Assembly: GCF_019669965.1 (NCBI RefSeq)
Contig: NZ_AP019781.1
Coordinates: 1,527,092 to 1,551,091, forward strand
Length of the DNA stretch: 24,000 bases
Direction of reading: 5' to 3'
From: Methanoculleus chikugoensis
GTDB taxonomy: Archaea > Halobacteriota > Methanomicrobia > Methanomicrobiales > Methanoculleaceae
Shown: in pieces, positions 1,330-17,929 of the stretch
Layout of the letters: the number at the start of each line of letters is the position of its first letter
How positions within the stretch are numbered: the first letter of the stretch is position 1
The notes under the pieces: generated by a model
What the model was told of the DNA's origin: nothing
Databases searched by the model: none
The model's input: the letters and a program-made list of their open reading frames with translations, nothing else
Position numbers and translations under genes: made by a program

Positions 1330-1983
1330 TCAATGCTTCCCGCGGATATCCCGGATATATTCAAGCGCGAGCAGCGCGTCCTCGCGTTTCCGGTCGACGG
1401 CATGTTCGTCGGCAAACGCCAGAAACCGGGTGAGGTCCTCCGGGTCCGCCTTCCCTTCCGCCGCCTCGACGACCGCATCGTAGGTCCGGTCGGGGAAGTA
1501 GAGCTCCCGGGCGGCCTCGAGGAGCCCCCGGGCTGCATCGGCGCCGATCACGTTGCACTCAAGCGCCTGCTGGATGGTCGCCCGGATGTTCACGAGCGGC
1601 TCAGAGAGCGGAATGAACGTCTCGGGGTCGAAGAGGAGCGCCACCTCGTCGTCGGCGACGAGCCTCCCCTCCCGGTAGGCCCGATAGATCTCCCCGACCC
1701 CTTCCATCCCGAGGCTGTCGAGTTCCGCGGCCCGCAGGGCTCCCATGCTGGAGGCGCCGATGACCCGCACCCCGGCCCGGAGGACGGCAAGAATCTCCCG
1801 GTGGGCGACGGCGCAGTCCTGGAAGAAGACGCCGTCGATGAGCCCGATGATCCGGGCACCGTCTTCGGCAGCCCGGGTTATGTCGCCCCGCTTTGCCGGA
1901 GGGCGGTAGTCGGCGTCGAGGATTGCCCGGGCAGTCTCGCGGTCACAGCTGGGACCGAGGAAGACGACGACTCCGCGCGTCAC
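1330..1983 (-). CDS. tfuA: TfuA-like protein (YcaO partner for peptide backbone thioamidation)
   Basis: 217-aa ORF with TfuA-typical segments VVVFLGPS, IGLIDGVFFQ and GASSMGALRAAEL. It overlaps the 3' end of the upstream ycaO by 41 nt. Confidence 0.9.
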   Translation of the reverse strand: MTRGVVVFLGPSCDRETARAILDADYRPPAKRGDITRAAEDGARIIGLIDGVFFQDCAVAHREILAVLRAGVRVIGASSMGALRAAELDSLGMEGVGEIYRAYREGRLVADDEVALLFDPETFIPLSEPLVNIRATIQQALECNVIGADAARGLLEAARELYFPDRTYDAVVEAAEGKADPEDLTRFLAFADEHAVDRKREDALLALEYIRDIRGKH

Positions 1984-3157
1984 GGCACCTCCTCCCCATT
2001 CGGTCCTGGTCCATCGCGTACATCTCGAGCCCCGGCACGATCACCCGGACGACCGGGATGCCGATCTCCGGCCGCGTGAGGTCGACCACGATCACCCGGG
2101 AGAGCCCGGCCCTCCCGAGGCGCTCGGTGACGTGGTTGATGTCGGTGAGGAAGTCGTCGCTGTCAAACGACGGCATCTCCGGGAACCGGACCGTCTCGCT
2201 CTCCGCGAACCAGTGCCGGTTCAGCCGCTTCGTCCGCTCGTACCCGATCATCTTTCTGACGTCCGCCGTATCGGTGTCTTCCCTCGCGCCGTGAATCTGC
2301 GTCAGCCTGCTCTGGGCGACCTCAGTGAGCGCCCGGAGGACCGCAATCCAGGCGCTCGTATGCGACCCCATCCCGATCGTGAGGAGCGCCGGGTCCTTGA
2401 GCACGACGTCGTCGGCCACCGCGGCCACCGTGGGGATCCCGATATCGCTCGTGATATCCTTCAGGGTCACCTCGACGCCGGCAGCTGCGAACTTCCCGAG
2501 CAGGTCGGCGGCGAGCCCGTCGTCGATCCCCTCGATCCGGGGGCCGGTATTCCGGGTCACCTCCACAAGCGACCAGGCGTCACGCTCGACCACCTCCATC
2601 AGGGCGTGGAAGGTCGCCTCCTCGAGGGTGTTTCCGGAAGCAAGTCCGTTGGTGTTGGTCCGGAAGAGGCGTCCGCAGGTCACCGGGAGGGGGTGGTAGA
2701 CCGCGTGGGCGGGAACGAGCACCTCCTCCTCCTGGACGATATCATACCCCTCAACCCAGGGGACGGCTATATCGGGCGGAACCCGATCGGGCAGGATCAG
2801 GTCCGCCGGGTCGATAGCCATCTTCCGGGCCGAGACCTCGCTGTACCGCCCGACGACCGTCTCCCGGCCATCCATCTCGCCCGAGTAGCGCTCGATCCCC
2901 TCCATCACGGCGGAGACCTCCGCCTCGATAGGAGTGGCGCCTTTCCCGTTGTAGACCGATATCGCTCCGGCCCCGGCGGTCGGCCGGATGCTCGAGAAGA
3001 CCGGGATGCCGATCCGGTCGAGGTTCGTGATGTCGGCGATCCGGGTGATCCCCGCCGCCGGGAGCTTCGCCCGCGCCAGGCGGAGCGTCTCTTCGGGCGG
3101 GATGGTGCGCTGGGTCTCGTTCGCGTAGGCCTTCCGGCACGACTGCAGCCGGATCAT
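1943..3157 (-). CDS. ycaO: YcaO-domain protein, methanogen type (McrA glycine thioamidation candidate)
   Basis: 404-aa ORF with a YcaO-domain core (GIPVFSSIRP..., VYNGKGATPIEAEVSAVMEGIERYSGE, C-terminal VPGLEMYAMD). It lies directly upstream of tfuA. Its ATG overlaps the moaE stop (ATGA at 3154-3157). Confidence 0.9.
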   Translation of the reverse strand: MIRLQSCRKAYANETQRTIPPEETLRLARAKLPAAGITRIADITNLDRIGIPVFSSIRPTAGAGAISVYNGKGATPIEAEVSAVMEGIERYSGEMDGRETVVGRYSEVSARKMAIDPADLILPDRVPPDIAVPWVEGYDIVQEEEVLVPAHAVYHPLPVTCGRLFRTNTNGLASGNTLEEATFHALMEVVERDAWSLVEVTRNTGPRIEGIDDGLAADLLGKFAAAGVEVTLKDITSDIGIPTVAAVADDVVLKDPALLTIGMGSHTSAWIAVLRALTEVAQSRLTQIHGAREDTDTADVRKMIGYERTKRLNRHWFAESETVRFPEMPSFDSDDFLTDINHVTERLGRAGLSRVIVVDLTRPEIGIPVVRVIVPGLEMYAMDQDRMGRRCRDARSRRLPRSQL

Positions 3158-3570
3158 GCATCGCCCCCGTAGGACTCGCCCGGCACCCAGCGCTCGCCGT
3201 CCTTCCCGATCTCCTTCTTCCAGATCGGCACGCTCTGTTTGATCCGCTCAAGGATGTACTCGCAGGCATCGAAAGCCTCCTTCCTATGCCCGGCGCCGAC
3301 GACGATGAGGAGGATGTTCTCCCCGACCCGGAGAGACCCGACACGGTGGACGATATCCACCGACTCGATCGGGTATTCCCGCAACGCCTCGTCGCGGATT
3401 GCCTCCAGTTCACGGACCGCAACCTCCTCGTAGACTTCCAGTTCCATCCGCTCGATACCGTCGTCGTCCCTGACGACACCGCAGAAAGTGACCAGGGCTC
3501 CCATGCCCGGCCTCTTCGCCGCCTCGATCATTGCACCCGCGTCGATGACGTCCCTGGTGATGCCAATCAT
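3154..3570 (-). CDS. moaE: Molybdopterin synthase catalytic (large) subunit MoaE
   Basis: 138-aa ORF with MoaE core motifs: VGENILLIVVGAGHRKEAFDACEYILERIKQSVPIWKKE. Confidence 0.88.
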   Translation of the reverse strand: MIGITRDVIDAGAMIEAAKRPGMGALVTFCGVVRDDDGIERMELEVYEEVAVRELEAIRDEALREYPIESVDIVHRVGSLRVGENILLIVVGAGHRKEAFDACEYILERIKQSVPIWKKEIGKDGERWVPGESYGGDA

Positions 3571-3584
3571 AACCTCATACCCCC

Positions 3585-3863
3585 TTATCCGCCCGCGACC
3601 GGCGGGAAGAGGGCGATCTCGTCCCCATCCGCAAGAACAAGAGCATCGCGGTCGATTTTTCCGATCCGCTTCCCGTTTCGCATCAGGATGACGTGCGCCC
3701 GGAGCACCCCGGTCTCGTCGAAGATTGCATCGCCCTCGTCTCCGGCACGCTCCCGGAGCGTGGCGAGAACCGCTGCCATCGTTGTCCCGTCGGGGAGATC
3801 GAGCGTCAACCCGCTCCCGAGGATCTCCCGGAACCGGGCGAACGCCTTCACCCGGATCTTCAT
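3585..3863 (-). CDS. moaD: MoaD/ThiS-family ubiquitin-like sulfur carrier (C-terminal GG)
   Basis: 92-aa ORF of beta-grasp size ending ...GDEIALFPPVAGG. Its ATG overlaps the stop of the upstream E1-like gene (ATGA at 3860-3863). Confidence 0.85.
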   Translation of the reverse strand: MKIRVKAFARFREILGSGLTLDLPDGTTMAAVLATLRERAGDEGDAIFDETGVLRAHVILMRNGKRIGKIDRDALVLADGDEIALFPPVAGG

Positions 3864-4594
3864 AGTCTCACCCCTTCACCGCAGACGGGGCAGTCCGGCC
3901 GCCGCTCCACGGCATACGTCTCAAGCGTCGTCGAACGGCCGTCCCAGATGAGGAGCCGGTCCAGCAGGAGGTCCCCGGTGCCGGTGATGTACTTGATCGC
4001 CTCGTTCGCCTGAATGAGGCCTATGATCCCCGGGGTCGTCCCGATGACCGGGAAGACCTCGGCGGGCGGGGCCTCCGGGAAGAGGCACTCAAGGCAGGCA
4101 GTCCGGCCGGGGATGATAGTCGTTGCCTGGCCGTCGAATCCCCGGATTGCGCCGTGCAGCAGGGGAACACCCGACCGGAGCGCCTCCCGGTTCAGGAGGT
4201 ACCGGGTCGGGAAGTTGTCCATCGCGTCCACGATCAGGTCGGCCTCGCCCACCAGGTCCCGGACGTTCGCCTCGTCAATCGTCGCTGCAAGGGCCTCGAC
4301 CCGGATGTCCGGGTTTGCCTCCCGGAGTTTCGCCTCCGCTGACCCGGCCTTCGGCGTACCGAGATCCCTCTCCCAGTGGAGGACCTGCCGGTTCAGGTTG
4401 GTCCGCTCCACGGTGTCCCGGTCCACAAGACGAATATCGCCGACACCGGCGACGGCAAGGTAGAGGGCGATCGGGCAGCCGAGACCCCCTGCCCCGGCGA
4501 TGAAGACCTTCGCCTTCTTCAGCCGTTCCTGCCCCTCCTCGCCGAAGAGGAGGATCTGCCGGGCGTAGCGTTCCCGTTCCCGCTCGGTGAGCAT
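3860..4594 (-). CDS. ThiF/MoeB/UbaA-type E1-like adenylyltransferase for Ubl sulfur carriers
   Basis: The track ORF runs 3860-4840, but its first 82 codons are Arg/Pro-rich and overlap iscU in another frame. The ATG at 4594 gives 244 aa starting MLTERERERYARQILLFGEEGQ. It has the GAGGLGC nucleotide loop and a CLEC...CPVC zinc site. Confidence 0.88.
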   Translation of the reverse strand: MLTERERERYARQILLFGEEGQERLKKAKVFIAGAGGLGCPIALYLAVAGVGDIRLVDRDTVERTNLNRQVLHWERDLGTPKAGSAEAKLREANPDIRVEALAATIDEANVRDLVGEADLIVDAMDNFPTRYLLNREALRSGVPLLHGAIRGFDGQATTIIPGRTACLECLFPEAPPAEVFPVIGTTPGIIGLIQANEAIKYITGTGDLLLDRLLIWDGRSTTLETYAVERRPDCPVCGEGVRL

Positions 4595-4598
4595 ACCG

Positions 4599-4988
4599 TT
4601 ATCCTCCGTTCGCGGTCGGCGTCCCGTACCGTGCCCGGTAGTCGTCGATCGCCTTGTGGATCCCCTCTTCGGCGAGAACCGAACAGTGAAGTTTCTGGGG
4701 GGGCAGCCCCTCCAGCGCCTCGGCAACCGCCCGGTTGGTGACAGCCCACGCCTCTTCGAGGGTCTTTCCCCTGACGAGTTCGGTGGCCATCGAGCTCGAC
4801 GCGATGGCGGCGGCACACCCGAAGGTCTTGAACTTTGCATCCACGATCCTGTTCTCTTCGATCCGAAGGGTTATCCGCATGATGTCGCCGCAGGCCGGGT
4901 TTCCGACCTCACCGACACCATCCGCATCCGGGATCTCCCCCATGTTCCGGGGGTTCATGAAATGATCCATGACTCGTTCGCTGTACAT
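4599..4988 (-). CDS. iscU: IscU/NifU-like Fe-S cluster scaffold
   Basis: Three scaffold cysteines sit in the motifs GNPACGD, FKTFGCAAAIASS and LHCSVLA. The ATG at 4988 (MYSERVMDHFMNPRN) is preceded by the SD-like GTGTGAT. An alternative GTG lies at 4997. Confidence 0.9.
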   Translation of the reverse strand: MYSERVMDHFMNPRNMGEIPDADGVGEVGNPACGDIMRITLRIEENRIVDAKFKTFGCAAAIASSSMATELVRGKTLEEAWAVTNRAVAEALEGLPPQKLHCSVLAEEGIHKAIDDYRARYGTPTANGG

Positions 4989-5000
4989 AGCAATCACACG

Positions 5001-6188
5001 TTATCGTTCCGGGTTGAGCGGCGACATCTTCCGCAGGCGCTCAATTACCCGGGGGAGGACGGAAAGGACGTAATCGACGTCGTCATCGGTGTTTCGGGAA
5101 CCGAGGGTGAGCCGGAGCGAGCCGTGGGCGTGCTCGTGCGGAAGGCCGCAGGCGGTCAGGACATGCGAGGGCTCAAGCGACGCTGAGGTGCAGGCGCTCC
5201 CCGTGGAGGCGGCGACTCCCAGGGTGTCGAGCGACAGAAGGATCGACTCCCCCTCGACGTAGCGGAACGCGACGTTGACGTTGTTTGCGAGCCGTTCGGT
5301 CGGGTGACCGTTCAATCGGGTGTCGGGGATCGCATCCAGGATCCCGCGGATCAACCGATCGCGCATCGCGGCGAGCCGGGGGGCCTTCGCGGGCATCTCG
5401 GCGGTCGCAAGTTCGATCGCCTTACCGAGCCCCACGATGCCGGGGACGTTCTCGGTCCCGGCCCGGCGGCCCCGCTCCTGCGCCCCGCCGTCTATGAACG
5501 TCCCGACCCGGGTCCCCTGCCGGACGTAGAGCGCTCCCGTCCCCTTCGGCCCGCCGAACTTGTGGGCCGAGAGCGAGAGGAGGTCGATCCCGAGCGCATC
5601 CACGTCGATCGGTATCGCCCCAATCGCCTGGACGGCATCGGTATGGAATGGGATGCCGTGGTCGTGTGCAATCTCCGCGATGGCACGGATCGGCTGGATC
5701 GTCCCGATCTCGTTGTTTGCGGTCATCACCGAGACGAGGATGGTCGCATCCGTGATCGCCTCCTCGACCGACGCCGGGTCGACCCGCCCGAACTCGTCGA
5801 CCGGGAGGTAGGTGACCCGGTAGCCCTGCTTCTCCAGGCTCTTGCAGGGGTGGAGAACGGCGTGGTGCTCGATTGCGGAGGTGACGATATGGTCGCCCTT
5901 CTTTTTGTTCGCTGCCGCCACCCCCTTGATCGCCCAGTTGTCAGCCTCGGTCCCCCCGGAGGTGAAGAAGATCTCATCCGTGCTCGCCCCGATCGCCGCT
6001 GCTACCCGTCCCCGCGCCCTCTCCATCGTCACCTGCGCCTCACGGGCGAGGGCATAGACCGAGGAGGGGTTCCCGAACCGTTCCGAGAAGCAGGGGAGCA
6101 TCTCTTCGACGACCTCAGGGCAGGTAGGGGTCGTCGCCGCGTGGTCCATGTAAACCGACCGTGATCGCCTGTTAACCGTAGCGTTCAC
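5001..6188 (-). CDS. iscS: Group I cysteine desulfurase (NifS/IscS type)
   Basis: Motifs VYMDHAATTP, PLP-lysine SAHKFGGPKG and active-site loop STGSACTS. The track start at 6242 is a TTG inside the palindromic operator and is unlikely. GTG at 6188 has an upstream GGGGTG SD-like element. ATG at 6149 is also possible. Confidence 0.88.
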   Translation of the reverse strand: MNATVNRRSRSVYMDHAATTPTCPEVVEEMLPCFSERFGNPSSVYALAREAQVTMERARGRVAAAIGASTDEIFFTSGGTEADNWAIKGVAAANKKKGDHIVTSAIEHHAVLHPCKSLEKQGYRVTYLPVDEFGRVDPASVEEAITDATILVSVMTANNEIGTIQPIRAIAEIAHDHGIPFHTDAVQAIGAIPIDVDALGIDLLSLSAHKFGGPKGTGALYVRQGTRVGTFIDGGAQERGRRAGTENVPGIVGLGKAIELATAEMPAKAPRLAAMRDRLIRGILDAIPDTRLNGHPTERLANNVNVAFRYVEGESILLSLDTLGVAASTGSACTSASLEPSHVLTACGLPHEHAHGSLRLTLGSRNTDDDVDYVLSVLPRVIERLRKMSPLNPER

Positions 6189-6235
6189 GCTGCACCCCAA
6201 TCCTGTACAAAGGTATTTGTCCTCCGGAACTAAAA

Positions 6236-6249
6236 TTAACAATTGTTAA
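6236..6249. promoter_or_regulatory. Operator site A: perfect palindrome TTAACAATTGTTAA
   Basis: Read directly from the sequence. It lies in the divergent gap between iscS (-) and the HTH regulator gene (+). It overlaps a TATA-like TTAATTTTAG (minus-strand sense, 6230-6239) upstream of iscS. Confidence 0.65.
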
Positions 6250-6291
6250 CATCATCGTTAGATTTGTTCAGAAACCATTAAAAGTTGTGGT

Positions 6292-6618
6292 ATGATGAAA
6301 CTCCCCTGCCAGTTGATTGTATGGAACGTATTGCCCGCAATCCGTGCGGCTATCGCGGAAGAACTGAATACTATGGGCGTTTCCCAGCTGGAGGCCGCCC
6401 GCCTCCTCGATATGACGCCGTCAGCGATCTCCCAGTACCGCACCGGGAAACGCGGGTACCGGATCGTCTTTGAGGGAGAGGTGAAAGAGTCGCTCAACCG
6501 GCTTGCACAGGACCTCCAGGCCGGCCGTGTCGACGACCTCGCCTCCCGGATATGTGAGATCTGCACGCAGATCCGCGAAGAGAATCAACTCGGCGGCTCA
6601 TGCGACGCTGAGACGTAA
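6292..6618 (+). CDS. Small HTH (XRE/COG2522-like) transcriptional regulator with C-terminal cysteines
   Basis: 108 aa. N-terminal PCQLIVWNVLPAIRAAIAEEL is followed by the HTH GVSQLEAARLLDMTPSAISQYRTGKRG. The C-terminal part has CEIC plus a further Cys (GGSC). Its stop TAA lies within the TAAGGAGG SD of the next gene. Confidence 0.75.
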   Translation: MMKLPCQLIVWNVLPAIRAAIAEELNTMGVSQLEAARLLDMTPSAISQYRTGKRGYRIVFEGEVKESLNRLAQDLQAGRVDDLASRICEICTQIREENQLGGSCDAET

Positions 6619-6632
6619 GGAGGCGTCCACCG

Positions 6633-7433
6633 GTGGAATCGAGGTGCAGCAGAGAAGCCGTCGTCGAGGCTCTCAGGGAGAAAGGCCCCATCCTCATCGC
6701 ATACTCCGGCGGCGTCGACAGCGCGCTCCTCGCCGCCCTGGCCGTCCGGGCACTCGGGAAGGATCGGGTCCGGTGTGTCCTCCTTGACTCGCCGCTTCTG
6801 CCCCGGCGAGAGATCGAGGAGGCGCGGGAGACCGCTGGCCGGCTGGACCTTCCCCTGGAGGTCGTGGCGTTCCCGATTCTTGAGGATGAGACCTTCCGGG
6901 CGAACCGGCCCGACCGCTGCTACACCTGTAAGAAAACATCGGCCCGCCTGCTGAAGGATCTGGCCCGGCGGGAAGGGATCGGCACGGTCGCAGACGGGAC
7001 GAACGCCTCCGACCCCGGCACGTACCGCCCGGGGCTTGCCGCAAGCGACGAGGAGGGCGTCTGCCACCCCCTCGCCGGGGCGGGTGCGACGAAGGATGAC
7101 GTGCGCAGGATCGCCCGCGAGTGCGGATTCCCGTTCTGGAACAAACCCTCGGCGGCCTGCCTCGCCACCCGCATCCCCTACGGGGACGAGGTCACGGAGG
7201 AGGCGCTCGCCCGGATCGAGGCGGCCGAAGAAGCGCTGCAGGACCGGGGATTCTCCCAGGTGCGGGTCCGCATGCACGGTGACGTCGCCAGGATCGAGGT
7301 GCCGTGCGACGCGATAGAGAGGCTCTTTTCCATGCGAAATGTTGTGACGGCCGCACTCCGCGCGATCGGCTTCGCCTATGTCGCCCTGGACCTCGCCGGG
7401 TACCGGAGCGGGAGTATGGATGAGGTCTTATGA
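6633..7433 (+). CDS. larE: LarE-family PP-loop ATP-dependent sulfur transferase (three-Cys variant)
   Basis: PP-loop AYSGGVDS, motifs CYTCK and SAACLATR, and the C-terminal LDLAGYRSGSMDE typical of LarE/TIGR00268-like proteins. The GTG start lies 9 nt after GGAGG. Confidence 0.8.
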   Translation: MESRCSREAVVEALREKGPILIAYSGGVDSALLAALAVRALGKDRVRCVLLDSPLLPRREIEEARETAGRLDLPLEVVAFPILEDETFRANRPDRCYTCKKTSARLLKDLARREGIGTVADGTNASDPGTYRPGLAASDEEGVCHPLAGAGATKDDVRRIARECGFPFWNKPSAACLATRIPYGDEVTEEALARIEAAEEALQDRGFSQVRVRMHGDVARIEVPCDAIERLFSMRNVVTAALRAIGFAYVALDLAGYRSGSMDEVL

Positions 7434-8614
7434 CCATTGAAGACTGTAGAGCGGATTTTCCGATCACCCGCGACCTCATCTACCTGGACAGCGCCGCAAC
7501 GGCGCTCACCCCGAAGCCGGTGGTCCAGGCGATGGTCGAGTACGACCTGCGATACCGGGCAAACGTCGGGAGGGGCGTGCACCGGCTCGCCGCGGTCGCC
7601 ACCCACCGCTACCGGGACGCCCGCGACGCTATAAAGTCGTTCATCGGCGGAGAGAGCGGCACCCTTGCTGTCACCCGGAACACCACCGAGGCGATCGGGG
7701 CGGTCGTCAACGGCCTCGACTGGCGCCGGGGCGACCGGGTGGCGACGACACTCCTCGAACACCACTCCAACCTCCTTCCCTGGCTCCGGCTCCGCGAGCG
7801 GGGAGTCGCGGTAGATATCGTCCGGCCGGACGCCGGGGGCAGCCTCGACCTCGCCGACCTGGAGGCTGCCGTCCGCGACGACACCCGGCTCGTCGCCGTC
7901 ACCCACGCCTCGAACGTCCTCGGCACCGTCCTTCCCGTCCGGGAGATTGCCGGGATCTGCCGCGACCGGGGTGCGCGGCTCCTCGTCGACGGCGCCCAGT
8001 CGGCCCCGCACATCCCGGTCGACGTCGCCGCCATCGGGTGCGACTACTTCTGTTTCTCGGGCCACAAGATGCTCGGCCCGACCGGGACAGGCGGGCTCTG
8101 GATGCGCGAGCCGGACCTCGAACCCCTCTTCGTCGGGGGCGGTTCGATCGAGAGCGCGACGGCGGACGGCTACATCCTCGCTCCCGGCGAAGAGCGCTAC
8201 GAGGCGGGAACGCCGCCGGTCGCCGGCACCATCGGGCTTGCACGGGCGGCGGCGTACCTCCGGGAGATCGGGATGGAGACGGTGCGGCGGCACGAGGAGC
8301 GACTCGCCGCCCGGCTGATCGACGGGCTCGCGGCGCTCGACGGGGTTACGGTCGCCGGCCCGGACGCGCCCGGCGACCGGATCGGCGTCGTCTCGTTCAC
8401 GGTCGAGGGGATGCACCCGCACGAGGTGGCGCAGGTCCTCGACGAGGCCGCCGCCGTCCTGGTCCGGTCGGGGCACCACTGCTGCCAGCCGCTCATGGAG
8501 CACCTCGACCTCCCGGACGGGACGGTGCGGGCGAGCGCCTACGTCTACACCACAACGGAGGAGATTGATACGCTGATAGCCACCGTCGAAGAGATCGCCC
8601 GGAGGGCGATCTGA
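7430..8614 (+). CDS. Group II (SufS/CsdA-like) cysteine desulfurase
   Basis: 394 aa with LDSAATALTP, HASNVLG, PLP-lysine FSGHKMLGPTGTGGL and active site RSGHHCCQP. Its ATG overlaps the larE stop (ATGA). Confidence 0.85.
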   Translation: MTIEDCRADFPITRDLIYLDSAATALTPKPVVQAMVEYDLRYRANVGRGVHRLAAVATHRYRDARDAIKSFIGGESGTLAVTRNTTEAIGAVVNGLDWRRGDRVATTLLEHHSNLLPWLRLRERGVAVDIVRPDAGGSLDLADLEAAVRDDTRLVAVTHASNVLGTVLPVREIAGICRDRGARLLVDGAQSAPHIPVDVAAIGCDYFCFSGHKMLGPTGTGGLWMREPDLEPLFVGGGSIESATADGYILAPGEERYEAGTPPVAGTIGLARAAAYLREIGMETVRRHEERLAARLIDGLAALDGVTVAGPDAPGDRIGVVSFTVEGMHPHEVAQVLDEAAAVLVRSGHHCCQPLMEHLDLPDGTVRASAYVYTTTEEIDTLIATVEEIARRAI

Positions 8615-9393
8615 TGCTCTACCGGGAACTGCCGATCGTCAGGGTCGACGACGAGACGTTCGTCCCCGCAACCCACCCCGTCGTCGAGGAGATGCCGCTC
8701 TCCGTGACCGTCAACGGGCGCCACGCCCTCACCGCGATGACGAGCCCGGCGATGATCCGGGAGTTCGTCGTGGGATTCCTCTACACGGAGCGGATCGTCA
8801 GGGATCTCGCGGAGATCGAGTCGATCCGGATCGAGGGGAATACCGCGAGCGTCCTCACGAAGAACCCGTTCGCGATCCTGACCTCCCACAAGACCGTCCT
8901 CTCCGGGTGCGGCGGGAGCACCTCGTTCCTCGATGCCGGTCACCTCCCCACTATACGCTCCGACCTCACCCTCGCGCCCGAGACGATCCGGGCGGCGACA
9001 AAAGAGACGCTTGACTCGGACCTTCACCGGATCACCGGCGGCATTCACCTCGTCGGACTCTTCGACGCCGAAGGCAGAGCGATCCGGATCGCCGAGGATA
9101 TCGGCCGGCACAACGCGCTCGACCGGGTCGTCGGCCACGGCCTGCTTGAGCAGATCGATTTCTCCCGGACGTTTGCGGTCAGCTCCGGCCGGATATCCTC
9201 CGAGATGGTCAGGAAGTGCCTGGTCGCGAACATCCCGGTGATCGTCTCGCGGGGGGCGACGACCACCACCGCCGTCGAGGCCGCAGAGGCGGGCGGGCTC
9301 ACGATCGTCGGGTTCGTGCGGAGCAAAAAGATGAACATCTATACCGGGTGGGAGCGGGTCCGCGGCGCTTCGCAGGCGACCGCAGGCGAGTGA
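8614..9393 (+). CDS. fdhD: FdhD sulfurtransferase (formate dehydrogenase-family Mo/W cofactor sulfuration)
   Basis: 259 aa with SGCGG and GRHNALDRVVG motifs and the length typical of FdhD. Its ATG overlaps the preceding stop (TGATG). Confidence 0.85.
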   Translation: MLYRELPIVRVDDETFVPATHPVVEEMPLSVTVNGRHALTAMTSPAMIREFVVGFLYTERIVRDLAEIESIRIEGNTASVLTKNPFAILTSHKTVLSGCGGSTSFLDAGHLPTIRSDLTLAPETIRAATKETLDSDLHRITGGIHLVGLFDAEGRAIRIAEDIGRHNALDRVVGHGLLEQIDFSRTFAVSSGRISSEMVRKCLVANIPVIVSRGATTTTAVEAAEAGGLTIVGFVRSKKMNIYTGWERVRGASQATAGE

Positions 9394-9513
9394 CCGGAGG
9401 GGCGGTCCCTTGCCCTGCCCGCCCGGTCGAACAACGGCTTCCATCGGCCGGAGAGATCTGCTGAACGCTTCTGCTCTGCAGTGCCGGGTTTCACGGACAC
9501 TGGCGAAAAATTT

Positions 9514-9557
9514 TGAAAAATCTGATTTTTCAGAAATTTTAGATCCCCATAAATACC
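9514..9557 (+). promoter_or_regulatory. AT-rich promoter region with a 9-1-9 palindrome TGAAAAATC-T-GATTTTTCA and a TATA-like ATAAATA
   Basis: The palindrome at 9514-9532 was read directly. The TATA-like box at 9549-9555 lies about 35 nt upstream of the ATG at 9588. This is the only strongly AT-rich stretch between fdhD and the AbrB-like gene. Confidence 0.5.
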
Positions 9558-9587
9558 ACCGCTCCCAACCATAGTACGAGAAACACT

Positions 9588-9878
9588 ATGGCAGAGGAGA
9601 ATACCGATCCGGAACGGTGTCCGTCAGATGGGACGCCGTGCGGGTGCAATCATGCTGCCGTCTGCAGCGTGGAGGCGGTGCTCAGCGTGGACGAGCGCGG
9701 GCAGATGGTGCTGCCGAAAGACGTTCGGGAAAAGGCGGGTATCCGGCCCGGCGACAAACTGGCGCTGATCACCTGGGAGAAGGACGGCGAGGTCTGCTGC
9801 CTTGCGCTGATGAAGGCCGGAAGCCTCAGTGGGATGGTCAGGAGCGTCCTCGGGCCGCTGATCGAGGAGGCGAAGTGA
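9588..9878 (+). CDS. AbrB/SpoVT-domain protein with a Cys-rich N-terminus (HgcAB-associated, HgcC-like)
   Basis: SpoVT/AbrB-like segment VDERGQMVLPKDVREKAGIRPGDKLALI. N-terminal CPSDGTPCGCNHAAVC and an internal CC. It lies immediately upstream of hgcA. Confidence 0.75.
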   Translation: MAEENTDPERCPSDGTPCGCNHAAVCSVEAVLSVDERGQMVLPKDVREKAGIRPGDKLALITWEKDGEVCCLALMKAGSLSGMVRSVLGPLIEEAK

Positions 9879-9882
9879 AGTC

Positions 9883-10929
9883 ATGACATCCCCGTCACGG
9901 TCATGCTGCCCGTCCTGCCCGGAGACGGTTCAGCCGGCCTCCGGGCCGGTGCAGGAGATCCGGACGACGGACAGCAGGATCACGCTCGCCGATCGCCTCG
10001 ATCACTTCCTCGCGCGCTTCGGGGTGAACCGGATGGGCCACCGCGTCGAGCCGGGGCTCTACCGGCTCGGGAACCCGACCGAGGACTCCCCGGTCTTCGT
10101 CTCCGCAAACTACACCCTGAGTTTCGATGCGCTCCGGTCCGCGCTCTCCGGCCGCGACGGCTACATCCTCGTTCTCGACACGCTCGGGATCAACGTCTGG
10201 TGCGCCGCGGGGAAGGGGACCTTCGGCACCGACGAGATCGTCCGGAGAATAGCGCTCACCGGTCTTGAGTCCGTCGTGAGGCACCGGACGCTCATCGTCC
10301 CGCAGCTCGGCGCCCCGGGCGTCTCCGCCCACGAAGTGCTACGGCGTTCGAGGTTCGAGGTGGAGTACGGGCCCGTGCGGGCGAGCGACCTCCCGGAGTA
10401 CCTCGCCCTCGGGAGAGCAACGCCCGATATGCGGCGCGTCCGCTTCCCGGCCGTCGACCGGCTCGTGCTCGCGCCGATGGAACTCGTCCACGCCGCGCTT
10501 CCGACCGTTGCAGGCGCGATCGTGCTCTACCTCCTCGCGGGCCTCCCGGCAGCGCTCGGAGCAGTCGCCGCGGTTCTCGCCGGAACGGTGCTCTTCCCGG
10601 CCCTGCTGCCGTTCATTCCCACCCGGGACTTCAGCACGAAAGGGCTCATCCTCGGGGGAATCGTCGCCCTTCCCTTCTCAGCCGCCTTCTTCGTTGAGAC
10701 TGCCGCGTCCGGGTGGGCCGGGGTGCTTGCCGCGTTCGCACCTCTCCTCCTCATGCCCCCCGTAACCGCATACCTCGCGCTCAACTTCACCGGCTCGACC
10801 CCGTTCACGTCGAGGACCGGTGTGAAGCGGGAGATCTTCCGGTACGTGCCGTTCATGGCGGGAATGGCGGTCCTGGGAGCCGCCCTTGCCGCCGTCCTCG
10901 GGACGGCGCACCTCCTGGGGGCGGTCTGA
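9883..10929 (+). CDS. hgcA: HgcA, corrinoid protein of the mercury methylation system
   Basis: Diagnostic cap-helix signature GINVWCAAGKGTFGT. The N-terminal soluble corrinoid-binding-like domain is followed by a long hydrophobic C-terminal half with several predicted TM helices. Confidence 0.9.
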   Translation: MTSPSRSCCPSCPETVQPASGPVQEIRTTDSRITLADRLDHFLARFGVNRMGHRVEPGLYRLGNPTEDSPVFVSANYTLSFDALRSALSGRDGYILVLDTLGINVWCAAGKGTFGTDEIVRRIALTGLESVVRHRTLIVPQLGAPGVSAHEVLRRSRFEVEYGPVRASDLPEYLALGRATPDMRRVRFPAVDRLVLAPMELVHAALPTVAGAIVLYLLAGLPAALGAVAAVLAGTVLFPALLPFIPTRDFSTKGLILGGIVALPFSAAFFVETAASGWAGVLAAFAPLLLMPPVTAYLALNFTGSTPFTSRTGVKREIFRYVPFMAGMAVLGAALAAVLGTAHLLGAV

Positions 10930-11240
10930 TGTTCGACTCCTACCGCGAGAATACCCTCCGCTACAACCCGGAGCGGTGCTTCGGCTGCCTGCGGTGCACC
11001 GAGGTCTGCCCGCACGGGGTCTTTGCCGAGGGAAACCGGCGGGTCGAGGTCGTTCGGCCGGAGGAGTGCATGGAGTGCGGGGCGTGCGCCCGAAACTGTC
11101 CGGTGCAGGCGATTGCGGTGCAGAGCGGAGTCGGGTGCGCCTGGGCGATGATCGGGGCGGCTCTCCGGGGTAAGGATATGGACAGCGGCACCTGCGGCTG
11201 CGGGGGAGACGAAGGATCCTGCTGCGGCGGCGACCGGTGA
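10929..11240 (+). CDS. hgcB: HgcB, 2x[4Fe-4S] ferredoxin partner of HgcA
   Basis: True start MFDSYRENTL; its ATG overlaps the hgcA stop (TGATG). Two ferredoxin motifs, CFGCLRCTEVCP and CMECGACARNCP, and a Cys-rich tail CGCGGDEGSCCGG. Confidence 0.88.
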   Translation: MFDSYRENTLRYNPERCFGCLRCTEVCPHGVFAEGNRRVEVVRPEECMECGACARNCPVQAIAVQSGVGCAWAMIGAALRGKDMDSGTCGCGGDEGSCCGGDR

Positions 11241-11246
11241 GACCTT

Positions 11247-12164
11247 CTACTCACCGTCCCGCCCGAGCAGCCTGCAGACCTGGCAGACCTCGCCGCTCGT
11301 GAGTTCGCCGCAGATGCGGCAGGTGGAGAGCGCCTTCGCCGGCTCCGCGGAACGAGCCGAACGCCTGACCCCGTCGCGGAACCGCATAAGGCGGAGCATC
11401 GTTCCCGGGTGGCGGTGTTCGAGCCCCGCAAGCATCGTGCGCACCTCCGACCGGAGCGCCGTCCCGGCGTAGGGGCACTCGGGCAGGTCGCGGAAGTAAC
11501 CGCGGAGGAGGAGGTAGGTCACGATCTCCTTCTCGGAGAGGACGGCGAGCGGTTTTATCCGCGGGACGAAGTGCCCGGGCTGCCCGGTCGAGGTGTCCTG
11601 GAGAAGGCGGGGGAGGTCGCCGCGGAGGACGTTCATCAGAACCGACTGCGCCTCGTCGTCGAGGTTATGGCCGGTGGCGAGTTTCGTCGCGCCGGTCCTC
11701 TTCACCGCCTCGCCGAGCGCCCGCCTGCGCAGCACGCCGCAGACGGTGCAGCCCTGCGCCTCTCTTCCGACGAGCATTGCATCGAGGTCTTTCCCGAAGA
11801 GGTCGGCGAACGTGACGATCGCGTGCTCGACGCCGAGTTCGCCCGTCAGGTCTCGTGCGGCCCTGAGGGTCTCCTCCCGGTAGCCCGCGATCCCTTCGTC
11901 GATGGTGATCGCGACCAGACTCGCGCCGAGTGTGGGGAGGATGGGGTGGAGCAGCAGGAGCAGGGCGGTGCTGTCTTTTCCCCCGCTCAGGCCGACGGCG
12001 ACCCGGTCGCCCGGCGAGATCATGCGGTCGTGCTTCATGGCGACGAGGACGCGGGTTTCGGCGTCCTCGATGAAGTGGCCGGCGCAGAGCCGCCGCTCCG
12101 GCTCAGTGAGGCGGACGACCGCAGGTTCGCCGCAGAGGGAGCACCGGTTCTCCGCCGAAGTCAT
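11247..12164 (-). CDS. ttuA: TtuA/Ncs6(NcsA)-family PP-loop tRNA 2-thiolation enzyme
   Basis: 305 aa. N-terminal Zn finger CSLCG...CAGH, PP-loop GLSGGKDS, cluster cysteines GCTVCG and ECPY, and C-terminal Zn finger CRICG...CQVC. Confidence 0.82.
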   Translation of the reverse strand: MTSAENRCSLCGEPAVVRLTEPERRLCAGHFIEDAETRVLVAMKHDRMISPGDRVAVGLSGGKDSTALLLLLHPILPTLGASLVAITIDEGIAGYREETLRAARDLTGELGVEHAIVTFADLFGKDLDAMLVGREAQGCTVCGVLRRRALGEAVKRTGATKLATGHNLDDEAQSVLMNVLRGDLPRLLQDTSTGQPGHFVPRIKPLAVLSEKEIVTYLLLRGYFRDLPECPYAGTALRSEVRTMLAGLEHRHPGTMLRLMRFRDGVRRSARSAEPAKALSTCRICGELTSGEVCQVCRLLGRDGE

Positions 12165-12168
12165 CGGC

Positions 12169-12363
12169 TCACCCGCCGTGCGAGAACCGGAGGATCCTGA
12201 GCTCGTCGCCTTCGGTCGCCGTCACGTCTTCGGGGACGATCTTGCCGTTCTTCACGACGATAACGGTCGTCGGATTGATGCCGAACTCGAGGAGGATCTC
12301 TTCTATCGGCGCGGAGGTACAGGAAAGAGTCCGCACGCTCCTGTCCGGGAGGATGATCTGCAT
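12169..12363 (-). CDS. ThiS/TtuB-like ubiquitin-like sulfur carrier (C-terminal GG)
   Basis: The ATG at 12363 gives 64 aa, MQIILPDRS...GDELRILRFSHGG. It lies 4 nt upstream of ttuA. The longer track ORF (to 12480) runs through promoter-like AT-rich sequence. Confidence 0.78.
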   Translation of the reverse strand: MQIILPDRSVRTLSCTSAPIEEILLEFGINPTTVIVVKNGKIVPEDVTATEGDELRILRFSHGG

Positions 12364-16802: not shown

Positions 16803-17010
16803 CCGGACGAGCGGGGTGTTCCCGATCGTCCAGGTGATATCACGGTATATCCGTCCCGTAGGTATAGCCTCCTTCGATCATTCATATACTTGAACAGGCA
16901 GCATTCCCGCGTCTCCGGCATCCACCGCCACCTCTTCGAGCGCACGGACCTTCTCGACCGCGGCGGCGGTGGATGGGCGTGCCGGACGACGTCCTCCTTG
17001 TCGAACGCGA

Positions 17011-17277
17011 TCAGCGGCCGGCAGCCTGGATCGGCTGGATGTTGATATATGCCTCTTCCCGGTTCCGGATATCGAGGCTGCCGGTGATCTTCGTGACCAG
17101 CGGAGAGCCCGTCCCGGCCTCCAGGTCGTCGAGGGCGGCCCGGACCCGGGCGACACCCTCCCGGATCGCCTGCTCCTCGGCGGGATCCGGGCCGGTCGGG
17201 AGCGTCTCCCGGAGCACTTCGCGGATATCCTCGAGCGCGAAGAGCGCTTCGAACGTCTTCTGGATCTCTTCCTTCAT
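17011..17277 (-). CDS. Hypothetical 88-aa protein directly downstream of tRNA-Cys
   Basis: The ATG at 17277 lies 5 nt after the tRNA 3' end. GC-rich third codon positions look coding. No family was recognised. The track ORF (to 17361) has an N-terminal extension that overlaps the tRNA and is spurious. Confidence 0.4.
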   Translation of the reverse strand: MKEEIQKTFEALFALEDIREVLRETLPTGPDPAEEQAIREGVARVRAALDDLEAGTGSPLVTKITGSLDIRNREEAYINIQPIQAAGR

Positions 17278-17281
17278 GGAG

Positions 17282-17353
17282 AGCCGAAACCCGGAGTCGA
17301 ACCGGGATGGAGTTGATCTGCAGTCAACCGCGTAGCCGTTCCGCCACCTCGGC
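17282..17353 (-). tRNA. tRNA-Cys (anticodon GCA)
   Basis: Manual cloverleaf of 72 nt. Acceptor stem GCCGAGG/UUUCGGC (two G-U pairs). Anticodon stem GUUGA/UCAAC with loop CU-GCA-GA. T arm CCCGG-UUCGACU-CCGGG. Discriminator U73, as expected for tRNA-Cys. No encoded CCA. Confidence 0.9.
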
Positions 17354-17407: not shown

Positions 17408-17929
17408 TATTTATACCTTCGGGTCACGCTGGCTGTCGGGCATTCGCCGCGGAACCGTTCCTGGCATGCTGCAGTCACCCGGACATTGGTTGGCCGCCGG
17501 GTTCTCAGCCACCAGCATCTCAATACCAGTCACGGCGCAGAGGAATCGTGACCGTTGCGAAGAAGGGACACGAACTTCAGCACAGAGCGGTGGAACCGGT
17601 CGTGCCCATCCCGGCGGTCAATCTCTTCCGGCTGTAACGCTCGCGTCGGAAAACCGACCACGGTTTCCCGGCCGCTGATAGCGTTCCAGTCCCCGATCCG
17701 TGAGCATCCCGGATCAGCCCTCCGCACAGGTGAACCCGCAGTTATGTGGCGTCGCCGCCGATCTTAACGTTGTAATACCGTGGAGTTGCCACTGCGCACG
17801 ATGCCCTCCCGCAACGGCAGCAGGAAACCCGGTACCCCGAAAAAACCGACCATCTCCTGAGAAACGTATATATCTGTGGTGATGGATATTCCGCACGAAC
17901 CTGCAGACGCACCGGGGCATGGAGAGAGC

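Follow-up and report, generated by a model that had tools for sequence, protein, structure and literature searches.

We analysed a 24,000-nt stretch of the chromosome of the methanogen Methanoculleus chikugoensis (contig NZ_AP019781.1, positions 1,527,092 to 1,551,091 of the forward strand), below called the window, in which the genes ycaO and tfuA stand at the end of a predicted seven-gene operon. Methyl-coenzyme M reductase makes nearly all biological methane, and the in vivo sulfur source of its thioglycine is only partly defined. An open reading frame (ORF) check confirmed that the minus strand of the window carries seven intact co-directional ORFs, in the order nifS, nifU, a gene for an E1-like adenylyltransferase (E1), moaD, moaE, ycaO and tfuA. 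A preliminary description of the locus, made from the sequence alone, had listed these seven one-strand genes, and recomputing the junctions reproduced all of its coordinates, gaps and overlaps.

Gene families were assigned by Pfam and NCBIfam profile searches, and scores are given in bits versus the curated cutoff of each model. The first gene (5001..6188, minus strand), with an ambiguous start at either GTG 6188 or ATG 6149, encodes a cysteine desulfurase which matched PF00266 and scored 599 vs 531 with the NifS model TIGR03402. The second (4599..4997, minus strand) encodes an Fe-S scaffold of the NifU_N type which matched PF01592 and scored 214 vs 188 with the NifU model TIGR03419. The preliminary description had named the two genes iscS and iscU. 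These names had to be replaced, as the window NifS reached 437-445 bits with the IscS models (cutoffs 548-643) and the window NifU 151 bits with the IscU model (cutoff 192).

The E1-like adenylyltransferase of the ThiF/MoeB family (3860..4594, minus strand; 244 aa) is of a kind that we call b-type. It was covered in full length by PF00899 (ThiF, 249 bits), contains the GxGxxG nucleotide motif and two CxxC zinc motifs, and is 100% identical to the M. chikugoensis protein P0001. Its scores were under the cutoff for all NCBIfam equivalogs, MoeB included, with 248 vs 450 for UbaA (NF047750). No rhodanese domain was detected in a profile search of the 244-aa protein, and there is no crossover-loop Cys, as Cys184 of E. 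coli ThiF (1ZFN) aligns to a gap. The following gene (3585..3863, minus strand) encodes a b-type ubiquitin-like sulfur carrier of the MoaD/SAMP1 type with 92 aa and the C-terminus PPVAGG, belonging to PF02597 (ThiS family). The carrier passed the SAMP1 model NF041918 marginally (63 vs 60) and moaD_arch TIGR01687 with 58 vs 49.5, and its relatives in the PDB are 2M19, 1VJK and the SAMP1 structures. A role as ThiS in thiamine synthesis was rejected on the NCBIfam score (TIGR01683, 23.5 vs cutoff 37.45). The catalytic subunit of molybdopterin synthase, MoaE (3154..3570, minus strand), is chimeric yet full-length; it scored 119 vs 23.4 with PF02391, and 102 vs 215 and 91 vs 175 with the NCBIfam equivalogs.

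The last two genes encode the McrA-glycine thioamidation YcaO (1943..3157, minus strand), which scored 510 vs 365 with the methanogen-marker equivalog TIGR03266, and the TfuA-related McrA thioamidation protein (1330..1983, minus strand), which scored 289 vs 235 with NF033432. The TfuA structure 6XP8 matched the window TfuA over its full length (E = 5.6e-54), and the SMGALRA motif is conserved. That ycaO-tfuA is required for the McrA thioglycine, a background also cited by the preliminary description, was shown by Nayak et al. 2017 (eLife, PMC5589413). Its statement that TfuA acts on thiocarboxylated ThiS-like carriers also has a real literature background, and the summary given in PMC13063428 describes TfuA as a hydrolase working with thiocarboxylated ThiS homologues. 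One later literature summary wrongly describes TfuA itself as thiocarboxylated.

The junctions within the operon are tight or overlapping, with Shine-Dalgarno-like motifs. The spacing is 3 nt between nifS and nifU, 4 nt between nifU and E1 (with GGAGG upstream) and 14 nt between moaD and moaE. The E1/moaD and moaE/ycaO pairs each share an ATGA overlap (3860-3863 and 3154-3157), and ycaO and tfuA overlap by 41 nt, which was found in other Methanoculleus loci too. An archaeal-style scan of the operon strand from ~6240 to 1364, covering the internal promoters and terminators that the preliminary description had named as a refuting condition, detected neither a T5 run nor an AT-rich 8-mer or 10-mer, and thus no archaeal promoter-like or terminator-like signal inside the operon. 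AT-rich, TATA-like patches occur in this part of the window only within the divergent promoter region between nifS and the adjacent HTH regulator gene (6189..6291), namely TTAATTTTA at 6239-6231 and AACTTTTAAT from 6286. Since T-runs and AT-rich boxes were absent internally and TATA-like patches were confined to this intergenic region, it is plausible that the seven genes would be transcribed as a single unit. A bacterial promoter and terminator scan is inapplicable to an archaeon and gave matches at chance level; it was replaced by the scan for T-runs and AT-rich boxes. The Rfam scan returned one tRNA only, with no riboswitch or other RNA element within the operon. In the ~0.9 kb 3' of tfuA (440-1330) no convincing gene was found and no oligo-T terminator follows tfuA; two plus-strand ORFs there, 504-740 and 650-820, resemble a single gene split by a frameshift.

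For comparison, 80 tfuA loci from GTDB species representatives were mapped by tblastn, of which L001-L029 are from Methanoculleus and close relatives. Most Methanoculleus were found to keep two loci: locus A with the order E1a-MoaDa-MoaEa-YcaO-TfuA, and locus B with the order NifS-NifU-E1b-MoaDb-MoaEb followed by a ferredoxin-like gene. The DNA homology of the window to other Methanoculleus ycaO loci starts exactly at the E1 start codon (4594). Versus the nearest relative, L21-II-0 (L001), the identity was 57-81% over E1, moaD and the 5' part of moaE and 90-100% from ~3350 on. The same step was seen in the proteins. Core Methanoculleus are 88-100% identical among themselves in MoaD and 80-95% in E1, with values of only ~53% and ~69% to the window MoaD and E1, and the window YcaO and TfuA fall inside the core Methanoculleus clade at 91-96% identity (95% for YcaO to that of L21-II-0).

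With the window E1 as query, a second, b-type E1 clade was found at 82-94% identity. The unfused b-loci, from HGW-Methanomicrobiales-2, M. thermophilus, GCA_023436625.1 and GCA_030154545.1, have the order FdhD<-SufS<-LarE<-HTH / NifS->NifU->E1b->MoaDb->MoaEb, and a 263-aa ferredoxin-like gene follows directly or after a short insert. Those genomes hold E1a-MoaDa-MoaEa-YcaO-TfuA elsewhere, as seen in the same-genome pairs L005/L084 and L023/L091. The b-type block was unlinked to ycaO-tfuA in five of the eight intact b-type loci sampled. A ninth one is degenerate (L092 3348-5479), consisting of NifU-E1b, a 72-aa ORF and the ferredoxin-like gene, while nifS, an intact moaD and moaE are missing, so the b-type set is able to decay.

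The change from one type to the other lies inside moaE. Residues 1 to ~80 of the window MoaE are b-type, with roughly 90% identity to the MoaE of locus B as judged by eye, and the C-terminal 52 aa match the ycaO-linked a-type proteins A_L012 and A_HGW2, including the end GERWVPGES-GGDA that overlaps ycaO. Binned identity profiles placed the junction at about 3300-3360 of the window. Methanoculleus sp. Wushi-C6 (L089) and the JGI metagenome contig L090 have the fused seven-gene layout as well, and the same arrangement was found in an M. chikugoensis draft assembly (L087) and one Logan contig (L081). We concluded that, on these alignments, the window reads as the 5' part of locus B joined to the 3' part of locus A by recombination inside moaE between paralogous E1-MoaD-MoaE sets, and that the seven-gene order is to be regarded as a recombination product, not a conserved design. 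The claim of the preliminary description that the whole route is encoded in one transcript was thus kept in part: a single unit is plausible, but nifS-nifU came with the paralogous b-type locus and the order of the seven genes is no conserved design.

The a-type trio has been lost from this genome by deletion. Wushi-C6 keeps an a-type E1-MoaD-MoaE without ycaO 20.6 kb upstream of its fused operon and in the same orientation (L088); apart from this site, Wushi-C6 and the window are collinear. What is left here is a stub of the deleted a-type E1 (17671..17709, minus strand), consisting of the start codon and 12 codons, with 97% identity to L001 7358-7396 and 92% to L088 10001-10037. Past the stub the homology resumes at L088 11659, 213 nt beyond the stop of the a-type moaE, which corresponds to ~1.6 kb of E1a-MoaDa-MoaE lost. 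No further a-type remnant was found within the window, and no E1a-type protein of the 2.62-Mb chromosome was among the results of a search in which the E1a of many other Methanoculleus did appear. Because the stub remains, Wushi-C6 retains the trio at the collinear site and the chromosome gave no E1a match, we concluded from these sequences that the genome must once have had both trios and now has only the b-type set, fused to ycaO-tfuA.

In neighbour-joining trees of E1 and MoaD the fused loci form a subclade (78% bootstrap for E1) within the b-clade (99-100%), of which the basal members are unfused, and the a-clade includes L027 with an operon nifU-E1-moaD-moaE-ycaO-tfuA. The trees suggest an old nifU-E1-moaD-moaE-ycaO-tfuA linkage, its duplication into a and b sets, and a secondary re-joining in the lineage of the window. 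Against this staged history, the window is by YcaO/TfuA and flanking DNA closest to the unfused L001, with 94% nucleotide identity, where the remaining fused genomes reach 86-89%. In Wushi-C6 both moaE copies (L088 11039-11446 and L089 11025-11441) have an identical C-terminal stretch of 45 aa but N-terminal halves of different types, which suggests gene conversion between these paralogues. Repeated exchange between moaE copies, or replacement between lineages, is likely. Neither a single reciprocal inversion nor a single deletion fits all flanks; for instance, tRNA-Cys and SepCysS, and not the ferredoxin-like gene, follow the a-type trio of Wushi-C6. At 16899-17353 (minus strand) the window has tRNA-Cys(GCA) and then a SepCysS-like gene that breaks off after 86 codons and runs into the tail of thiI. 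Compared with Wushi-C6 (L088 12286-17930) this site is a 5.6-kb deletion, in which the genes for the SepCysS-like protein, a Cys/Met-metabolism PLP enzyme, an abhydrolase-CBS protein, DUF1890, DUF1894 and ThiI are gone.

Among the loci of Methanoculleus and close relatives, MoaE lies directly upstream of YcaO-TfuA in 28 of 29; in the remaining one (L010) the sequence ends 51 nt upstream of tfuA. Upstream nifU was seen in L027 and L028 only and the window-type nifS in none. The ycaO-tfuA operon begins at E1, with neither nifS nor nifU, in ~25 other Methanoculleus species, and the comparison of the seven-gene order across methanogens that had been proposed with the preliminary description showed that this order is not conserved. 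An a- or b-type trio always precedes ycaO-tfuA in the sampled Methanoculleus loci. Other lineages have other orders: E1-MoaD-MoaE is placed after YcaO-TfuA in L031 and L033, and in Methanothrix and ANME-2c a MoaD-type carrier starts 5-20 nt after tfuA. All tested carriers beside tfuA or in these operons passed the SAMP1 and MoaD_arch cutoffs and failed the ThiS cutoff. Where both flanks reached 5 kb or more (38 loci), a carrier was found near tfuA (within 5 kb) in 27, E1 in 17, MoaE in 21 and NifU in 2.

Since MoaE adjoins YcaO-TfuA in 28 of 29 loci and E1, MoaD and MoaE recur in the orders of other lineages, the clustering exceeds what chance would give. The linkage of E1 and MoaD, and in part MoaE, to YcaO-TfuA is recurrent and independent of gene order, and we regard this recurrence as good evidence of functional coupling. 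Judged by the same loci, the linkage of nifS-nifU to YcaO-TfuA is not recurrent in this way. What we observed directly is which genes these are, how the operon is built and that E1, MoaD and MoaE recur with YcaO-TfuA.

The association of these genes as such is not new, because Nayak et al. (2017, PMC5589413) already listed thiF, sufS, moaD, moaE and moeB near ycaO-tfuA in several methanogens; the linkage concept is published and the locus adds no new chemistry. As in that system, YcaO and TfuA pass dedicated equivalogs, their genes overlap, and thiF/moeB-like, moaD, moaE and desulfurase genes are adjacent. Unlike it, the window fuses all of these, plus nifU, into a seven-gene recombinant unit and retains one E1-MoaD-MoaE set. 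The comparison adds that Methanoculleus has E1-MoaD-MoaE in two paralogous sets, that the recombination junction lies inside moaE, and that a deletion, still visible as a scar, has left one trio only, next to ycaO-tfuA.

In work from 2021 by Liu et al. (Nat Chem Biol), a ThiS-type thiocarboxylate was reportedly hydrolysed by TfuA. The window operon resembles this delivery system, to which 6XP8 belongs, in that it encodes a GG-ending PF02597 carrier and a PF00899 E1 together with TfuA. It differs in that the window carrier is of the MoaD/SAMP1 type by NCBIfam, not of the ThiS type, and is followed by moaE. With the bacterial and archaeal MoeB-MoaD-MoaE pathway of molybdopterin synthase and the UbaA/SAMP1/MoaE system of Haloferax the operon shares, in tandem, an E1 with two CxxC motifs, a GG-ending MoaD and MoaE. 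Here the differences are that the window E1 is below the MoeB and UbaA cutoffs and is without the loop Cys, that MoaE is below the NCBIfam equivalog cutoffs, and that the set lies in one predicted unit with ycaO-tfuA.

We think that the seven genes probably constitute one operon of recombinant origin, transcribed from the divergent promoter at ~6190-6290, in which a sulfur, Fe-S and molybdopterin module (nifS-nifU-E1-moaD-moaE) was joined to the ycaO-tfuA thioglycine module. E1 would adenylate the C-terminal glycine of the MoaD-type carrier, and sulfur from a cysteine-desulfurase persulfide or from free sulfide would be added to MoaD-AMP to give the thiocarboxylate MoaD-COSH. The sulfur donor would have to be external to E1, because E1 has neither a rhodanese domain nor the loop Cys. 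MoaE would take MoaD-COSH for the dithiolene of molybdopterin. TfuA would also hydrolyse MoaD-COSH and pass the sulfide to YcaO, which would activate the McrA backbone amide with ATP, so that the McrA glycine becomes thioglycine; McrA itself is encoded outside the window. The functions of YcaO and TfuA and the hydrolysis of ThiS-COSH rest on the literature; we infer that TfuA acts on the window MoaD, that MoaE uses this carrier too and that NifS supplies its sulfur.

NifU would belong to a side branch for Fe-S assembly, outside the relay chain, and is best read as an Fe-S scaffold from the nifS-nifU pair that ancestrally headed the b-type operon. Its position, which the preliminary description had left unexplained, is accounted for because NifS-NifU travel with the b-type trio. 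The sharing of one carrier between MoaE and TfuA/YcaO, also proposed there, is possible, and the deletion of the second trio lends it modest support. More specifically, M. chikugoensis may naturally represent a single-carrier genotype, with one MoaD-type thiocarboxylate feeding both molybdopterin synthase and TfuA/YcaO, a proposal that we make tentatively and with less than even confidence.

The most probable alternative treats the seven-gene order as neutral, a mere by-product of the recombination of moaE paralogues. NifS and NifU would then act in Fe-S assembly and for the b-type molybdopterin module, with no role in thioamidation. We consider this a serious possibility, to which we give a chance not far short of even. 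The junction sits inside moaE, nifS-nifU-E1b-MoaDb-MoaEb occurs without ycaO-tfuA in L084, L085, L091 and L093/L094, and the ycaO-tfuA operons of the ~25 species do without nifS or nifU, all as expected for such a by-product, as is the disagreement of the E1b history with that of YcaO/TfuA. However, the more basal L027 and L028 carry nifU-E1-moaD-moaE-ycaO-tfuA, so that the nifU linkage is old and recurrent, and three lineages at least have kept the fused form.

Several further points weigh against the recombinant relay operon that we favour. By the sequence comparisons, the layout may have originated by fusion or by fission. Free sulfide suffices for YcaO thioamidation in vitro (Mahanta 2018, as summarized in PMC7581889), and because YcaO works with free sulfide in vitro and methanogens live in sulfide, a protein donor is perhaps not required. 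The ubiquitin-like sulfur carriers of Thermococcus kodakarensis are redundant and are bypassed by elemental or inorganic sulfur (PMC11323500); this organism is also a precedent for one archaeal ubiquitin-like carrier acting in more than one sulfur-insertion pathway, although these are tungsten cofactor synthesis and tRNA thiolation and include no peptide thioamidation. At many ycaO-tfuA loci of Methanoregulaceae, carrier, E1 and MoaE are all missing from the vicinity. In Methanothrix (L034 4818-9157) the order is YcaO-TfuA-MoaD1-E1 ... MoaD2-MoaE with both carriers of the MoaD/SAMP1 type; by its gene order this locus is a natural case of dedicated rather than shared carriers, and sharing is not universal.

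Alternative carriers and donors are also at hand. A second GG-ending ubiquitin-like carrier, SAMP2/ThiS-like and of 64 aa, is encoded ~6 kb from the operon (12169..12363, minus strand), directly upstream of an NcsA/TtuA-like gene for tRNA 2-thiolation (11247-12164, minus strand). It scored 26.9 bits for SAMP2 and 21.7 bits for ThiS, both below the cutoff; its orthologues in L089 and L091 carry PF21965 SAMP2, and it could use the E1 of the operon. Besides the operon NifS there is a SufS-like desulfurase next door (7430-8614), and elsewhere in the genus a second NifS paralogue, 84% identical to the window NifS, was found in a Lon-NifS-phosphoglucomutase context without nifU (L095 8001-9173; P0233, P0249) in other Methanoculleus. 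In M. palmolei a single contig carries two NifS clusters.

A second alternative takes the genes to be co-regulated without a direct relay. They would share a transcript for sulfur-dependent maturation, with MoaD serving MoaE only and TfuA/YcaO using free sulfide or another carrier, such as the SAMP2-like one or an unlinked ThiS. The reconstitution with external sulfide, the sulfur bypass in Thermococcus, the SAMP2-like carrier in the window, the many ycaO-tfuA loci without a nearby carrier and the dedicated carriers of L034 all speak for it. We nevertheless consider it rather unlikely, as MoaD-type carriers re-associate with tfuA in three gene orders across methanogen orders, TfuA is reported as a hydrolase with thiocarboxylated ThiS homologues, and an a- or b-type trio always stands ahead of ycaO-tfuA in Methanoculleus. 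A sampylation system, in which E1 and the MoaD/SAMP1-like protein would mainly conjugate to and regulate MoaE or other targets, is very improbable: the carrier just clears the SAMP1 equivalog cutoff and SAMP1-MoaE conjugation is known from Haloferax (PMC4443979), but the E1 is far below the UbaA cutoff and has no crossover-loop Cys, no JAMM/MPN protease gene was found among the scanned ORFs of the window, and the adjacency to MoaE and TfuA indicates thiocarboxylate chemistry.

Divergently from the operon lies a second cluster of sulfur genes (6292..9393, plus strand), identified by profile scores. It consists of the HTH regulator (6292-6618), a LarE-like PP-loop sulfur transferase (6633-7433; TIGR00268, 304 vs 150), the SufS-like desulfurase (TIGR01979, 392, below the cutoff of 475) and the FdhD sulfurtransferase (8614-9393; TIGR00129, 189 vs 141). 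Wherever a sampled b-type locus extends far enough upstream, the cluster flanks nifS-nifU-E1b. In other orders it is again present in the vicinity of ycaO-tfuA (L073, L047, L064, L067, L074, L076), divergently adjacent in Methanosphaerula and 3-6 kb off in Methanothrix, and its association with ycaO-tfuA may be better conserved than that of nifS-nifU. Between fdhD and the TtuA-like gene the window has a block with a MazE-like, a CdhD-like and a small ferredoxin gene (9500-11240), which is present in the window, Wushi-C6 (L089) and L093 and absent from L090 and L091, an indel polymorphism of the b-locus flank.

The order of the genes found here, which came from recombination between duplicated genes, cautions that a tidy operon need not be a designed pathway. 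The value of the locus lies in the comparison set, in which fused, unfused and single-trio Methanoculleus genomes stand side by side, and which bears on the sharing of a carrier between molybdopterin synthesis and thioamidation, on the carrier specificity of TfuA and on the feeding of the relay by a desulfurase. TfuA is 96% identical between the window and its closest relative, and the carriers adjacent to it are only ~53% identical. If M. chikugoensis does have a single-carrier genotype, TfuA would tolerate divergent MoaD-type carriers and the paralogous trios would be interchangeable in function.

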